Program-made: the position numbers and the translations under genes
Virus record (IMG/VR): IMGVR_UViG_3300007747_000074
Coordinates: 1 to 21,308 of that record
Source of the DNA: a virus
Taxonomy: Duplodnaviria; Heunggongvirae; Uroviricota; Caudoviricetes
Reading direction: 5' to 3' (one strand)
Length of the DNA stretch: 21,308 nucleotides
Notes under the pieces: generated by a model
Told to the model about the DNA's origin: nothing
The model's input: the letters and a program-made list of their open reading frames with translations, nothing else
Databases searched by the model: none
Part shown: in pieces, positions 2,493 to 13,576 of the stretch
Position numbering within the stretch: the first letter of the stretch is position 1
Layout of the letters: every line of letters starts with the position of its first letter

Positions 2493-2795
2493 TTACCAGT
2501 CGTTCCCGGAGGGTGAAATAATCCCGTTCAGCGGTGTCTGCCAGTCGGGGGGAGGCTGCATTATCCACGCCGGAGGCGGTGGTGGCTTCACGCACTGACC
2601 ATCGAGCGCAGCAACATCACGCTGACGCATCTGCATGTCAGTAATTGCCGCGTTCGCCAGCTTCAGTTCTCTGGCATTTTTGTCGCGCTGTTCTTTGTAG
2701 GCGATGGCGTTATCACGGTAATGATTAACACCCCATGACAGGCAGACGACGATGCAGATAACCAGAGCGGAGATAATCGCGGTTACTCTGCTCAT
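2493..2795 (-). pseudogene. Rz/Rz1 spanin remnant: Rz N-terminus fused in frame to Rz1 C-terminus (rzpR-like)
   Basis: First ~65 aa ([33 protein letters not shown]) resemble lambda Rz, then the frame continues into the proline-rich Rz1-type C-terminus ([30 protein letters not shown]); Rz coiled-coil/C-terminal domain and Rz1 signal peptide/lipobox are absent; 4-nt overlap with the endolysin stop. Confidence 0.7.
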
Positions 2796-3268
2796 ACCTC
2801 AATCTCTCTGACCGTTCCGCCAGCTTCTTTGAATTTTGCAATCAGACTGTCAGCCTTATGCTCGAACTGACCATAACCAGCGCCCGGCAGTGAAGCCCAT
2901 ATATTGCTGCAACGGTCGATAGTCTGACGGATATCACCGCGATCAATCATCGGCAAAGCGCCACGCTCTTTAATCTGCTGCAGCGCTACAGCATCCTGAC
3001 TTTCTGGAGAAAAATCTTTCAGGCCAAGTTGCTTGCGGTAGGCATCCCACCAGCGTGAAAGAAGCTGGTAACGTCCAGCGGCTGTTGATTTGAGTTTCGG
3101 ATTTAGCGTGACAAGTTTGCGGGGGTGATCGGAGTAATCAGTGAACAGTTCGCCACCGACAATAACATCATAACCGTGATTTCTGGTTTTCTGCCGTCCG
3201 TTATCTGTTCCTTCTGACCATGCCACCATATCAAGGAAAGCTTTACGCTGGGAATTAAGTGTCTGCAT
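2792..3268 (-). CDS. Endolysin, lambda R-like lytic transglycosylase
   Basis: 158 aa, near-colinear with lambda R as I recall it (..[81 protein letters not shown]..), including the catalytic-glutamate SEGT context; immediately follows the holin. Confidence 0.85.
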
Positions 3269-5581: not shown

Positions 5582-6180
5582 TACGCAAACTCCAGCAGCT
5601 GCGCGGTCACATTTTCGACTTGTTCCGGAGAGGAAAATTTACGGAACAGAATCCAGTTCCACAGCACATTCAGAACAGATTTATAAACCTGCTGAAACTC
5701 GGTTTCGTCCATATTCGCAAAAGCGATGGATTTCGCCCGACGCCCATGGCTACCATCAGGATAAAGATGCTCGGTGTAAAATCCGGCCTGAATGGTTACC
5801 CACTCGCGGAAAGCCTCAAACGACTTTAGCAATGCCGTATCCCGGGTTCTGCGTGTCGCAACTGTATTCAGATATTGCTCTGCGGCTTCGCTCAGAGCTG
5901 GCGTATGTTCCCGGCCTACTGATTCACATAGGTAATCAACGAATCCTGAAACCAGCTTTCGTTCGCGAGGCGTGATCGCCCCACCGACCGGAGTCCAGTA
6001 ATCGAATCCCAGTTGCAGGAGTTTGAAAAAACGCTTGTGGAATGCGTAGTTACGCACACGCTTAAAGTCTGCGTGTATCCACTCGCCTATTTTGATTTGA
6101 TGCAAAAAATCGCAACTCTCCGGCGTCGCCGGGAGAAGTAGTCCAGAAGAGGTTTGTTTGACCAGTTGTATATGCGCCAT
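5581..6180 (-). CDS. Phage nin-region protein (DUF1367-like), function unknown
   Basis: 199-aa ORF translationally coupled to the YbcO-like gene; family name recalled from lambdoid prophage nin regions, not verified. Confidence 0.55.
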   Translation of the reverse strand: MAHIQLVKQTSSGLLLPATPESCDFLHQIKIGEWIHADFKRVRNYAFHKRFFKLLQLGFDYWTPVGGAITPRERKLVSGFVDYLCESVGREHTPALSEAAEQYLNTVATRRTRDTALLKSFEAFREWVTIQAGFYTEHLYPDGSHGRRAKSIAFANMDETEFQQVYKSVLNVLWNWILFRKFSSPEQVENVTAQLLEFA

Positions 6181-6458
6181 TTCTCAATCTCTCGATGGCG
6201 CAGTGCAGCAGATGCCAGTTGTTCAGGCTGACGAATAAAGTATAAATAAACTGGCTATGGTGTAAAGCTCCACATAACATGAACAAACACTACATATCAA
6301 ATAGCTGATACAAGGATAGAAATACAACACTTATTATTAAAAACGATTAGATAAATTACATTTTAATGTTATGAAAAAGTTCTTTTTTATCATAACATTT
6401 CAACAAAAGCATTACAGATGCACATCCCGTCATCATCAATTATTTAAGGTGGTTAAAC

Positions 6459-10784: not shown

Positions 10785-11531
10785 TTACTTCGCAATTCCT
10801 GGCTGGACGACATTCGGACGCCAGCTCTCCCAGTTGAAATTCACCCATCGCCCGCCGTTCATGGTCATGCGATCCATAATCCGCTCGCCAAGCAATGTTT
10901 TCATGGCCTCATAGTTCAGGTTTGTCAGCATCCCCACGCTGCGCATCGACGCTGTCCGGCGATCAACAATCTGGTGCAGTACCACCTGCTCGTTTTTCGT
11001 CTCGCGCTGAATGCCAATTTCATCAAGAACCAGCAGATCCACTTCGCACAGTTCCCGCAAAAATTTTTCGCCTGACTGCCCGTCGTCATAGCTGGCGTGC
11101 AGGGCACTCATAACATCAGCCACGGTAACCACAATCACTGTCTGACCGTCTTTCAGCAGGCGATTCCCGATAGCTGCCGCTAAGTGGTTCTTCCCGGTAC
11201 CAGGTTTTCCGCTGAACGCAAAATTTGTACACCCGGTCATCAGTTCATCAGCGATGGATTTCGCCTGACTCAACGCGTATCGCTGCCCTTCGTTCTGCAC
11301 CTGGTAATTCGAAAACGAGCATTTGCGGTGCAATGGCTGGATGCCAGAGTGATTCAGAATTTTTTCCACCCGCAACTGACGATTCTGACGGTTGATCTCC
11401 TCACAACGTTTCTGGCCTTCGGAAAGTTGCCACTCGCGCCACTCCGCTACCGTCTTGAATGGCGCGGTTACATGTGACGGGGCCAGTCTGCGGATACGTT
11501 CAAGAACGTCGCCTGTCGCAATATTTTTCAT
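10785..11531 (-). CDS. DnaC-like replicative helicase loader (YdaV-like AAA+ ATPase)
   Basis: 248 aa; Walker A FSGKPGTGKNHLA and Walker B-like LLVLDEIG; immediately downstream of the O-like initiator gene. Confidence 0.8.
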   Translation of the reverse strand: MKNIATGDVLERIRRLAPSHVTAPFKTVAEWREWQLSEGQKRCEEINRQNRQLRVEKILNHSGIQPLHRKCSFSNYQVQNEGQRYALSQAKSIADELMTGCTNFAFSGKPGTGKNHLAAAIGNRLLKDGQTVIVVTVADVMSALHASYDDGQSGEKFLRELCEVDLLVLDEIGIQRETKNEQVVLHQIVDRRTASMRSVGMLTNLNYEAMKTLLGERIMDRMTMNGGRWVNFNWESWRPNVVQPGIAK

Positions 11532-11537
11532 GGTCAG

Positions 11538-12326
11538 TTACCCCCTGAAGCCTGGCGGGATCGCACTATCCGGTAACGAGACGGTGTTAACCTGTCGGAG
11601 TAACGTCTCAGGTCGAACACCTTTCGGCGCGAACAAGCCCTGGTATTCGTTGGCGATGCTGTGTCGAATCACCTGCTCAGGTGAAAAACCCTGCTGGCGG
11701 AATTTTTCCAGCTCCCGTATCGCCCCGTTAGCGCCCTGCTCCGTTCGAATCGGTTTTCGCAATGCCTGCCTGAACTGAACCCACTCATGCCAGAGTGTTT
11801 CCGGCAACCAGTCAGGCAGCTCGATAGCCTCCGGTTCGAATTTTTTAGACGCTCGTTTTTGGCGAGGGGGATTTAGGGGGAGATAAGTATTTATATCTTC
11901 CTCTTTCTCTTCCTCTGGTAACGCTTTTTGATCCGTTTTTGTAACGCTGGCAGCGTTACCTTTTCGTTTCAGTTCTCGTATTTTTGTTACTCTCTCGTTT
12001 GTAACCGCCCGTTTTTTAGAGCTTTTCCCGTTATGGCGCTCAAAGTTAGGAAGCGACAACACACCATTAGTTTCGACCAGCCATCCAACCTGAATTAACG
12101 CATCAGCAAAACCAGCCATAAAAGTGATGCGATCTATTGCACTTTTTGTAACGCCGCGAGCGTTACACTCTGCGTTACCGTCTATCATTTGTTGATCCGC
12201 CCATGCCCAGAAGCGAATGACTTTCCCTAATGCGGCATCTGGATCAATATTCAGAATCTCAGCAAGCCTGAATATTTCCGGCTTATCCGGCGTAATAACT
12301 TCGAGCTTTATCCAGTTTGAAGCCAT
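11538..12326 (-). CDS. Replication initiator, O-like (YdaU/DUF1376-like)
   Basis: 262-aa ORF upstream of the DnaC-like gene; N-terminal coding region carries palindromes GTAACGC-N5-GCGTTAC, as expected for an origin embedded in an initiator gene. Confidence 0.6.
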   Translation of the reverse strand: MASNWIKLEVITPDKPEIFRLAEILNIDPDAALGKVIRFWAWADQQMIDGNAECNARGVTKSAIDRITFMAGFADALIQVGWLVETNGVLSLPNFERHNGKSSKKRAVTNERVTKIRELKRKGNAASVTKTDQKALPEEEKEEDINTYLPLNPPRQKRASKKFEPEAIELPDWLPETLWHEWVQFRQALRKPIRTEQGANGAIRELEKFRQQGFSPEQVIRHSIANEYQGLFAPKGVRPETLLRQVNTVSLPDSAIPPGFRG

Positions 12327-12358
12327 TTGTTTTCACCTTGTAACGCTCGCAGCGTTAC
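11918..12358. repeat. Three 19-bp palindromes GTAACGC-N5-GCGTTAC plus half-sites (candidate ori or operator sites)
   Basis: Palindromes at 11941-11959 (gtaacgctggcagcgttac), 12148-12166 (gtaacgccgcgagcgttac), 12340-12358 (gtaacgctcgcagcgttac); half-sites gtaacgc at 11918-11924 and gcgttac at 12172-12178; two are preceded by a T-run. Confidence 0.6.
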
Positions 12359-12403
12359 ATTTAACTGATACCGAACAAAACAGTTCGGTACGATTAATTT
12401 CAA

Positions 12404-12826
12404 TCAATGCACTACGACAGAATCGCTAGGAGAACCGCCGCCGCTGAAATGTGCTTTACGGTAAACGGCCTGGACTGCATCATCATGCGCATCAATTGCC
12501 GTACTCAGTGCATCCTGTGCCGCCAGTAATGCACGGCGTTCCAGGGTATCGAAGATGCAGAGTCGGTGACGCAGCTCGCGAGGAAGAATTGCCAGAACCG
12601 CAGGGATCAGTTTCTGAATTTTTTCCCTTTGCGCATTCGTTTCACCTTTCAACCAACGATGATAGATATTCTGCTGATTGTTCCAGTCCTTGCCTGGTAC
12701 CAGGGGCAATTCGCCGCCCCCCTGGCGCAGATATTCTTCAGTAATTGCGTTAGCGACCCACGCCTGCCCTTTTTCGGCTGCCAGGGCTAACAACACTGAT
12801 TCGATGTGCTCATGCTTGATTTTCAT
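12404..12826 (-). CDS. YdaT-like protein (140 aa)
   Basis: ORF overlapping the upstream Cro-like gene stop by 4 nt (ATGA); same size and position as Rac YdaT; function not evident from sequence. Confidence 0.55.
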   Translation of the reverse strand: MKIKHEHIESVLLALAAEKGQAWVANAITEEYLRQGGGELPLVPGKDWNNQQNIYHRWLKGETNAQREKIQKLIPAVLAILPRELRHRLCIFDTLERRALLAAQDALSTAIDAHDDAVQAVYRKAHFSGGGSPSDSVVVH

Positions 12827-13077
12827 GAATCAACTCCCATCAGCTTTTTCGTAGTAGTTTTATTTCTGCCAATAGTTAAAATTGCATCGGCAGAAAATAA
12901 TCCGTTTGATGCATGAGCGATTTTTTCAGCGTAATTTGTTTCGCCGGTATATTCTGTGCGAGGCAATTTTCCGTTATCCATCCATTTGTAGATTGCTCTT
13001 TGGCTGACACCACAAACGTCGGCCACAACAGAAACGCGAACAGTTTTGATTACATCTTCAAGTGTTTTCTGGTTCAT
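12823..13077 (-). CDS. Cro-like HTH regulator (YdaS/DicC position)
   Basis: Start taken at internal Met (MNQKTLEDVIK...) with SD gaggg 5 nt upstream; HTH-like VADVCGVSQRAIYKWM; divergent from the repressor gene; ORF first ATG is at 13149. Confidence 0.55.
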   Translation of the reverse strand: MNQKTLEDVIKTVRVSVVADVCGVSQRAIYKWMDNGKLPRTEYTGETNYAEKIAHASNGLFSADAILTIGRNKTTTKKLMGVDS

Positions 13078-13085
13078 ATCACCCT

Positions 13086-13156
13086 CACAATGTGAACTTT
13101 GAGTACATGCTATAACAGAACTGACAGTACATTCAAGAGCGAATATCATTGAACTT
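13086..13156. promoter_or_regulatory. Divergent immunity-region operator/promoter (OR-like)
   Basis: Near-palindrome cacaatgtg (13086-13094); direct repeats gaactttgagtacat (13094-13108) and gaactgacagtacat (13118-13132); third gaactt at 13151-13156 abutting the repressor ATG. Confidence 0.45.
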
Positions 13157-13576
13157 ATGGTTCATGAAGATAAAGCGCGTAAAGAGTTCGCCAGTAGGCT
13201 TGCGCTAGCCTGTGAAAACGCTGGTTATGAACAACATGGAAGGCAGGCAGAAATTGCCCGTCGAATGAAATTAACACCAAAAGCGGTTAGCAAATGGTTT
13301 AATGGTGAAACAATTCCTCGCCGAGAGAAATTAAGGGAATTAGCAACACTCATTGGAACAACACCAACCTATCTTTTGGGAGAGGATACAGAAGAAAGTG
13401 GACAGATACGTTTCTATCAGGAGTTAAATCCAAGACAAAAAATCATCATTGACCTTCTGGACGAGCTCCCTGACAGTGAGACAGATGAACTTTTAAAAAC
13501 TCTTGAGGAGAAAAAACAGAAGTACAATGCAATTTACGAAGAGTTAGCACGAAAGAAAAAACAAAAAGCCTCTTAA
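13157..13576 (+). CDS. XRE-family HTH repressor, DicA/RacR-like (prophage immunity repressor)
   Basis: 139 aa; N-terminal HTH (RLALACENAGYEQHGRQAEIARRMKLTPKAVSKWFNGETIP) and C-terminal helical region (IIIDLLDELPDSETDELLKTLEEKK...) parallel DicA architecture as I recall it; in-frame stop 57 nt upstream rules out a longer N-terminus. Confidence 0.7.
   Translation: MVHEDKARKEFASRLALACENAGYEQHGRQAEIARRMKLTPKAVSKWFNGETIPRREKLRELATLIGTTPTYLLGEDTEESGQIRFYQELNPRQKIIIDLLDELPDSETDELLKTLEEKKQKYNAIYEELARKKKQKAS

Follow-up and report, generated by a model that had tools for sequence, protein, structure and literature searches.

Which process is served by three identical, widely spaced palindromes in the replication region of a prophage? 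The 19-bp palindrome GTAACGC-N5-GCGTTAC is found within and just upstream of a replication initiator gene in IMG/VR virus record IMGVR_UViG_3300007747_000074, of which positions 1 to 21,308 (referred to below as the window) were analyzed. The window is a Rac-type prophage of E. coli, integrated at the ttcA site. An earlier note, made from the window sequence, had proposed that the palindromes could form either an unconventional replication origin or looped operator sites for a dimeric regulator. We estimate a probability of about 0.78 that they are binding sites (iterons) for the N-terminal domain (N-domain) of the initiator and belong to a lambda-type replication origin located within the initiator gene. 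This reading is based on the co-travel of the sites with the N-domain, on selection acting at the DNA level, on coordinated changes of sites and N-domain in sublineages, and on a lambda-like position of the sites beside purine-rich and AT-rich DNA. The first proposal of the earlier note is thus strongly supported by comparative data, while the second is not, since the motif is missing between cI and cro and the known YdaT sites are different.

Phased half-site arrays next to a polypurine tract

Exactly three copies of the palindrome are present in the window, at 11941-11959, 12148-12166, and 12340-12358, with centre-to-centre spacings of 207 and 192 bp, as had been reported earlier. No additional copies were found in the window, even when two mismatches were permitted. 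Dinucleotide-preserving shuffles gave an expectation of 0.04 palindromes per window, and three copies appeared in none of 100 shuffles. The 7-bp arm, counted in both orientations, occurs ten times in the window; eight of these occurrences are inside 11918-12358 and include two extra half-sites, at 11918-11924 and 12172-12178, that the earlier note had also listed.

The initiator gene, an open reading frame of 262 codons on the minus strand (11538-12326), contains two of the palindromes. Below, gene nucleotide x is counted from the initiator start codon and corresponds to window position 12327 - x. Site A covers gene nt 149-179 (12148-12178), where a half-site reading GTAACGC on the gene strand (nt 149-155, 12172-12178) is followed, with a 12-bp step to the next half-site, by a palindrome (nt 161-179, 12148-12166) that encodes the peptide C-N-A-R-G-V-T. 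Site B covers gene nt 368-409 (11918-11959), in the region coding for the interdomain linker. It consists of a palindrome (nt 368-386, 11941-11959) and a distal half-site, GCGTTAC on the gene strand (nt 403-409, 11918-11924), located 23 bp past the previous one. Site C, a perfect palindrome without assigned strand (12340-12358), is non-coding. It lies in the 77-bp gap between the ydaT-like and initiator genes, 13-32 nt 5' of the initiator ATG, with a Shine-Dalgarno sequence, AAGGTG, directly downstream. Each of the three clusters in the window thus contains a single palindrome, with one extra half-site at A and one at B.

The distal half-site of site B adjoins a 21-nt polypurine tract on the minus (coding) strand, AGAGGAAGAGAAAGAGGAAGA (11896-11916), which is directly followed on the same strand by an AT-rich stretch, TATAAATACTTATCT (11881-11895). 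The GC content is 0.37-0.38 over 11840-11929 versus 0.52-0.62 in the segments just below (11660-11839). The polypurine tract had been missed in the earlier note, yet it is the most conserved companion of the sites among relatives. An imperfect inverted repeat, AGGGGGAGATAAG...CTTCCTCT (11875-11904, plus strand), extends across the AT-rich stretch into the polypurine tract and was flagged by a terminator scan. In ori-lambda, an inverted repeat lies beside the AT-rich region; the repeat at 11875-11904 might be its counterpart, or it might be due to chance.

The organization of the arrays is more clearly seen in relatives. In 84 distinct loci, 560 half-sites were counted, and their consensus is (G)GTAACGC(T). 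Within an array they converge, forward half-sites coming first and reverse half-sites after them, typically in the order "> < <" at A and "> > < <" at B. Relatives typically carry 3-5 half-sites per cluster, and neighbouring half-sites are 11/12, 22/23, 33/34, or 45 bp apart. Such 11-12 bp phasing, approximately one helical turn per unit, implies that the half-sites are exposed on one face of the helix. The half-site at 12172-12178 corresponds to a four-codon (12-bp) insertion encoding "ECNA" that is found in the window lineage and in some other enterobacterial relatives; the loop encoded at site A is therefore extended in the window lineage by exactly one half-site unit. The earlier note had contrasted the palindromes with the tandem iterons of lambda. 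The full palindromes are indeed dispersed, but around each of them half-sites form a local phased array, and each palindrome has the 7-N5-7 geometry of lambda iterons.

In relatives, too, the last half-site of site B adjoins a polypurine tract on the coding strand, and the junction can be written as GCGTTACC(T/A)AGAGAAGAGAAGAGAAGA, followed by AT-rich DNA. Junctions of the form GCGTTACC(T/A)AGAG... are shared across phyla. Gene nt 330-520 contains the longest purine run of the entire ca. 3.4-kb locus in 67 of 94 distinct loci. An identical 23-mer, AGAGAAGAGAAGAGAAGAGAAGA, is shared by epsilon15 and by relatives from Xanthomonas, Pseudomonas, and Hahella, a planctomycete relative has a 24-nt form, and the tract in the window is the enterobacterial form of this family-wide (AGAGA)n element. 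In a Mesorhizobium metagenome-assembled genome (L163, gene nt ~330-700), the polypurine tract is found at gene nt 682 instead of ~400, with extra coding sequence in between, which suggests that a domain was inserted between the N-domain and the origin core.

Sites and the initiator N-domain among relatives

The initiator product matches PHROG 2509 ("replication initiation protein") at 4.7e-88. No Pfam family was found for it, and a sequence search against PDB chains produced no match. The phages vB_EcoS-673R7 and vB_EcoS-666R9 encode a protein 100% identical to it. The protein is divided into an N-domain (aa 1-122, window 11961-12326), a disordered, charged linker (aa 123-175, 11802-11960), and a C-terminal domain (C-domain; aa 176-262, 11538-11801). 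It is also modular: residues 1-145 are shared with proteins of phages in which the C-terminal half differs considerably, while residues 139-262 recur in lambda-O-like proteins. The description of the initiator as YdaU-like in the earlier note is appropriate for the 124 C-terminal residues, which are 81% identical to K-12 YdaU, but not for the 138 N-terminal residues, which are unrelated to the DUF1376 domain of YdaU. The idea that the N-domain could be a remote DUF1376 homologue was rejected, as hhalign returned a probability of 0.1.

In an AlphaFold2 (AF2) model, the N-domain is winged-helix-like, with a predicted local distance difference test score (pLDDT) of >90, and the linker is disordered. 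The model places a beta-hairpin at residues 84-91, after four helices (16-25, 29-46, 61-68, and 73-80), and the winged-helix-like fold is followed by a basic, conserved segment, aa 97-122. Two helices flank the peptide encoded by site A, which is modelled as a loop with low confidence (pLDDT of 57 over aa 51-60). Fold matches of the N-domain were generic. An exhaustive representative search (E<=1e-3) placed ca. 6,390 clusters at 50% identity in the N-domain family.

We found that the sites accompany this domain. In relatives whose N-domains are 35-69% identical (Enterobacter BUCT554, Escherichia TL-2011b and HEMP4, Xanthomonas CP2, Pseudomonas VW-6S and PAN70, CBW1004C, and Ralstonia YL1), the palindrome is located at gene nt ~149-167 with 0 to 2 arm mismatches, and all of them have the second cluster at ~344-400. 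A profile-guided scan, limited to one genome per species, yielded 80 loci, including complete planctomycete chromosomes, many Pseudomonas, Xanthomonadales, Burkholderiales, and Akkermansia. The gene start could be placed in 78 of these loci, and in them TAACG/CGTTA pentamers piled up at gene nt 120-210 and 330-420 only; the four central 30-nt bins of either cluster contained tens to 94 of them each, over a background of ca. 1 per bin. The site A position is homologous in 84 distinct genes, and almost all relatives possess the site B cluster. A non-coding palindrome resembling site C precedes the ATG in eight enterobacterial relatives (L068, L070, L073, L077, L082, L086, L089, and L091), in which the upstream sequence is otherwise unrelated; no equivalent was found upstream of the ATG in L080, L084, L085, and L098-L100.

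The reverse test gave a similar result. Among 120 sampled IMG/VR stretches with an exact 19-mer, 100 encode the N-domain within 800 nt, and stretches of this kind account for 165 of 187 palindromes. Those without an N-domain are mostly isolated matches or contig ends. In four IMG/VR stretches (L229, L303, L304, and L251), phased TAACG half-site arrays are present although no N-domain gene was detected within 800 nt. These could be stand-alone secondary sites, or their initiators could be too divergent for the profile. The link between the sites and the N-domain holds irrespective of the neighbouring regulators, the C-domain, or the helicase loader, and the sites are retained when neighbouring genes change completely (KilAC antirepressor, Roi, methylases, or no ydaT).

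Natural domain exchanges and specificity classes show the same association. A comparison with K-12 Rac ydaU, of the kind that the earlier note had suggested, revealed that the GTAACGC site is absent there and that TGTTCAAAC repeats occupy the linker-coding region instead. K-12 YdaU carries a DUF1376 N-domain (PF07120 at 2.7e-26) on a C-domain of the window type, so the exchanged unit is the N-domain together with its sites. Gifsy-2 O combines a lambda-O-type N-domain with the window's type of C-domain; it contains ATCCCCGAAAACGGGGAT iterons in the linker-coding region, and no GTAACGC. Thus, three unrelated N-domains are found on one C-domain type, each with its own repeats at the domain junction, as expected of a module composed of an initiator DNA-binding domain and its cognate origin. 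In K-12 ydaU (L185, NC_000913.3 1421119-1421976; locus 2768-3077), TGTTCAAAC is present twice, with one inverted copy, at gene nt 393-460, and a single TGTTCAA is found at gene nt 149, the same offset as that of site A. These ydaU repeats may correspond to the origin of K-12 Rac (oriJ?), which is unmapped.

Within the N-domain family, the sites change with the lineage. In a Vibrio-phage subfamily of eight loci with 64-97% mutual identity, GTCAC-N9-GTGAC is present at both clusters, together with 12-bp-phased GTCAC direct half-sites. The basic segment at aa 97-122 also differs between the classes, with RA-x-T-x-x-RV in the GTAAC class and RA-x-D-A-E-RKR in the GTCAC class, and is the foremost candidate for the determinant of specificity. 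In this class (L008, L178-L184), the purine tract at gene nt ~390-450 is replaced by tandem GATAAGAGTAGAGTA-type repeats that encode (DKSRV)n and vary in copy number between relatives. Epsilon15, SPN1S, phiPSA1, RPZH3, and Carin1, more distant relatives with 27-31% identity, have GTCCGCA/TGCGGAC at two clusters; all of these except Carin1 keep the same (AGAGA)n tract. In SPN1S (L172), epsilon15 (L173), phiPSA1 (L176), and RPZH3 (L177), the clusters are at gene nt ~50-110 and ~330-375, and the first cluster of this class is written into the sequence of N-domain helices 1-2 and not of the loop.

Codon usage was compared in an alignment of the 84 distinct genes. At site A, Gly is encoded by GGT in 81 of 84 cases, Asn by AAC in 79 of 80, and Val by GTT in 78 of 82. 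The codon entropy there is 0.10-0.35 bit; elsewhere in the same genes, conserved Gly and Val residues are encoded by all synonyms, with an entropy of 1.6-1.9 bit. The frozen codons are also seen in hosts with 60-68% GC. In the window, sites A and B share a reading frame and give similar peptides, while site B of BUCT554 and of TL-2011b is read in a frame that differs from that of the window. The frozen synonymous codons, the differences in site B frame, and the non-coding location of site C imply that the sites are under selection at the level of DNA. An origin of the palindromes as chance matches or as a by-product of a G-N-A-x-x-V-T peptide repeat, for which only the shared frame and similar peptides of window sites A and B speak, is refuted by these same three observations and by the shuffles, and its probability is negligible.

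The origin reading and its rivals

The existence of the sites, their geometry, their conservation as DNA, and their exclusive tie to the N-domain are established by the comparisons above. The later steps (binding by the initiator, looping, opening of the duplex at the polypurine tract, and recruitment of the helicase) are inferred. The N-domain would bind the phased half-sites cooperatively, with (G)GTAACGC as a 7-8 bp unit. Site B (11918-11959) would be the core origin site, and the polypurine tract (11896-11916) together with the AT-rich stretch (11881-11895) would constitute the unwinding element where the duplex opens. Initiator bound to site A, and to site C where the latter is present, would join the site B complex through looping or wrapping of DNA, and the complex so reinforced would destabilize the adjacent polypurine/AT-rich DNA. 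The C-domain would then recruit the DnaC-like protein YdaV and host DnaB to the opened DNA. Alternatively, or in addition, initiator at A and C may throttle read-through into its own gene, with site C acting as an added roadblock or as an autoregulatory site for initiator expression.

The arrangement can be compared to that of ori-lambda. The lambda record has four annotated iterons of the form TCCCTC-N5-GAGGGA at O nt 349-433, with a purine-rich, AT-rich coding-strand tract directly after them. As in lambda, the sites discussed here are inside the initiator gene, in the part that codes for the linker joining the DNA-binding N-domain to the loader-recruiting C-domain (lambda O nt 349-433, site B nt 368-409), full sites are 7-N5-7 inverted repeats, a purine-rich, AT-rich coding-strand tract is directly beside the sites, and site B and the tract have the same polarity as their lambda counterparts. 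In both systems, specificity goes with the N-domain, the C-domain and loader are exchangeable, and the helicase-loader gene is next. There are also differences. None of the four N-domains of the family that were searched matched a Pfam family, including Phage_rep_O, at E<=1, so that no similarity of the window N-domain to the lambda-type domain is detectable. Lambda has four tandem full iterons, whereas here half-site arrays phased by 11-12 bp surround one palindrome. A second conserved cluster is found ca. 200 bp upstream, within the sequence coding for a structured domain, and in enterobacterial lineages a third cluster, which is non-coding, precedes the gene. The tract here, an (AGAGA)n mirror-repeat polypurine, is almost invariant, and the loader is DnaC-like, while that of lambda is P-like.

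Likenesses to other systems were also considered. The prophage type, the gene order (ydaT-like gene, initiator, ydaV), and the C-domain are shared with K-12 Rac YdaU/YdaV; the difference is that YdaU has a DUF1376 N-terminus, whereas the 138 N-terminal residues of the window protein have no Pfam family. In iteron plasmids of the RepA, RepE, and pi families, an inverted-repeat operator lies 5' of rep and is bound by autorepressing dimers, while the origin iterons bind monomers. The winged-helix initiator, the repeated phased sites, and the inverted repeat upstream of the initiator gene (site C) are reminiscent of these plasmids, and the coexistence of direct half-sites and inverted pairs recalls their monomer/dimer duality. 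G38P of Bacillus phage SPP1 binds repeated boxes within its own gene (oriL), and a second site is located kilobases away. The presence of boxes inside the initiator gene and of more than one separated binding region is similar here; the protein family and box sequences are unrelated, and the distance to the second site is different.

Several considerations weigh against an origin at these sites. Site B of the window consists of one palindrome and one half-site, versus four iterons in lambda. The polypurine tract also encodes the charged linker, so some constraint at the protein level is possible. Residues 73-80 (FADALIQV), which form the helix at the recognition position, lack basic character, and the DNA-contacting surface is therefore not evident. 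The roles of sites A and C are inseparable by sequence, and these sites could be purely regulatory. K-12 Rac DNA was reported to be replication-defective after excision (PMC11879457); this point is qualified by the fact that K-12 Rac carries another N-domain module than the window. Finally, no published binding, unwinding, or replication experiments on this initiator family were found in the literature searched.

That the sites are operators, through which a CI-like, Cro-like, or YdaT/CII-like protein or an autorepressing initiator loops DNA with no origin function, we consider unlikely. The dyad symmetry of the full sites is what would be expected for dimeric repressors, site C is just 5' of the initiator ribosome-binding site, and a spacing of ca. 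200 bp fits looping. However, GTAACGC was not found in the divergent cI/cro intergenic region (13078-13156), and relatives keep the sites when the neighbouring genes change. Published YdaT sites differ both in sequence and location: for CP-933P, the reported site is TTGATT-N6-AATCAA (PMC9986795), and in K-12 Rac the bound regions are at the ydaS promoter and the ydaT start (PMC11879457). In addition, a consensus scan predicted no sigma-70-like promoter near sites A, B, and C, and direct-repeat half-site arrays beside a polypurine/AT-rich tract are not a feature of operators. Autorepression by the initiator at site C is possible as an added role.

The involvement of the sites in some other DNA transaction (as a partition site or centromere, in packaging, as a host factor site, or as the target of a phage methylase or nuclease) appears quite improbable. 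Centromeres do have phased repeat arrays, a C-5 cytosine methylase gene is found beside the initiator gene in some relatives, and the few IMG/VR arrays with no detectable N-domain gene nearby would be compatible with such a role. Yet the arrays stay in the initiator gene despite widely differing flanking genes and annotated taxa, which argues against a link to a particular packaging or partition module, and no par genes adjoin the sites in the replication region of the window. As the hosts belong to several phyla, a single host factor is implausible, and the shift of the specificity classes together with the N-domain lineage is likewise at odds with this explanation.

A function of the palindromes as RNA hairpins that affect translation, processing, or stability of the early mRNA is very improbable. 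On the transcript, each palindrome would fold into a stem of 7 bp closed by a loop of 5 nt, site C is directly 5' of the Shine-Dalgarno sequence, and a neighbouring element does behave as an RNA hairpin (see below). The arm sequence is invariant, however, with no compensatory arm changes within the main class, while the loop sequence varies freely. Moreover, many half-sites are direct repeats that are unable to pair, and the 11-12 bp phasing is indicative of duplex DNA.

The neighbouring element is the palindrome taccgaac/gttcggta (12369-12390, minus strand, between the ydaT-like gene and site C), which had been pointed out earlier and is confirmed here; its stem measures 8 bp and its loop 6 nt. 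The sense-strand 5' arm, UACCGAAC in the window, reads UGCCGGAU, UGCCGGAC, or UGCCGGAG in relatives. These substitutions (A>G, A>G, and C>U) preserve the pairing of the arms by way of G-U, except at the final base of the UGCCGGAG variant. The calculated folding energy of the sense RNA is -10.1 to -13.9 kcal/mol for all four variants, and that of the antisense strand, and with it of the palindrome as DNA, is -1.6 to -3.9 in the three variant forms. Since pairing is kept solely via G-U on the sense RNA, the element is an RNA stem on the mRNA and not a DNA site. Judged from its sequence variation, it is an element separate from the DNA-site system, and it may have a role in processing, stability, or coupling. 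Its identification as an intrinsic terminator was rejected, because the sense-strand stem is followed by UCAGUUAAAU, with no U-tract; the only terminator-like call is on the plus strand, antisense to the genes.

Gene context and the wider family

Many sequenced chromosomes match the window at 100% identity across 1.8 kb. The early region is on the minus strand, in the order Cro-like gene (12823-13077), YdaT/CII-like (ydaT-like) gene (12404-12826), initiator gene, and DnaC-like helicase loader gene (ydaV, 10785-11531), the last of which is directly 3' of the initiator gene. The YdaV product matches NCBIfam PRK12377 at 6e-152, DnaC at 2e-91, and PHROG 50. A DicA/CI-like repressor gene (13157-13576) is on the plus strand. 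The initiator gene is probably part of the cro-ydaT operon.

In several relatives, C-5 cytosine methylase genes adjoin and overlap the initiator gene (342-1511 in epsilon15, L173; 1004-2008 and 3389-4261 in L008). A copy of the initiator/site module, 69% identical, is present at 5642-6412 of a 52-kb E. coli "plasmid" (CP088505.1, L186). This is a circular record with Mu-like transposase genes and no replicon type, and it may be a phage-plasmid or an excised prophage. It was rejected as evidence of autonomous replication, since it is mosaic-looking, carries Mu-like transposition genes, and has no replicon typing.

An origin within the initiator gene is a classical theme, but for the large, unnamed initiator family considered here, such a layout seems not to have been reported. 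No origin is annotated at these sites in the phage records that were fetched. Literature searches on oriJ and Rac, on a ydaU origin, on the motifs and the polypurine string, and on epsilon15 and lambdoid iterons returned nothing on the family; a paper on Pf-5 that was retrieved concerns an unrelated plasmid-like oriV.

A broader proposal can be made, although tentatively, and we regard it as rather doubtful at present. The family may represent a pan-bacterial origin module, with binding sites contained in its own coding sequence, arrays that grow by 12 bp, and a sequence-specific (AGAGA)n opening element. In such a module, the GTAACGC half-site would be almost invariant from Planctomycetes to E. 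coli and, as the arrays change by 12-bp (four-codon) units, the DNA sites would dictate the sequence of the protein loop and linker. The opening element would be an (AGAGA)n mirror-repeat polypurine and not a generic AT-rich DNA unwinding element. The retention of (AGAGA)n despite the change of iteron specificity would imply a distinct mechanism, e.g., H-DNA/triplex-assisted opening or sequence-specific single-strand capture by the initiator.

The main interest of the locus is in the cross-phylum invariance of a cis-site located in coding sequence, in the layout of two or three clusters, and in the conserved (AGAGA)n tract. The invariance of the polypurine tract across iteron classes is the most interesting point, as it suggests a conserved opening or loading step. 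If the origin reading is confirmed, phased GTAACGC half-sites followed by (AGAGA)n in a recognizable gene would be a signature for finding origins, and it would locate them in thousands of temperate phages and prophages whose initiator has no family name. It would also explain the interchangeable front halves of initiators in E. coli Rac-type prophages, each N-domain bringing its own origin, and would provide a natural system for the study of overlapping codes, in which the coding sequence of a structured domain has to contain the DNA target of that domain and synonymous positions are fixed across phyla.

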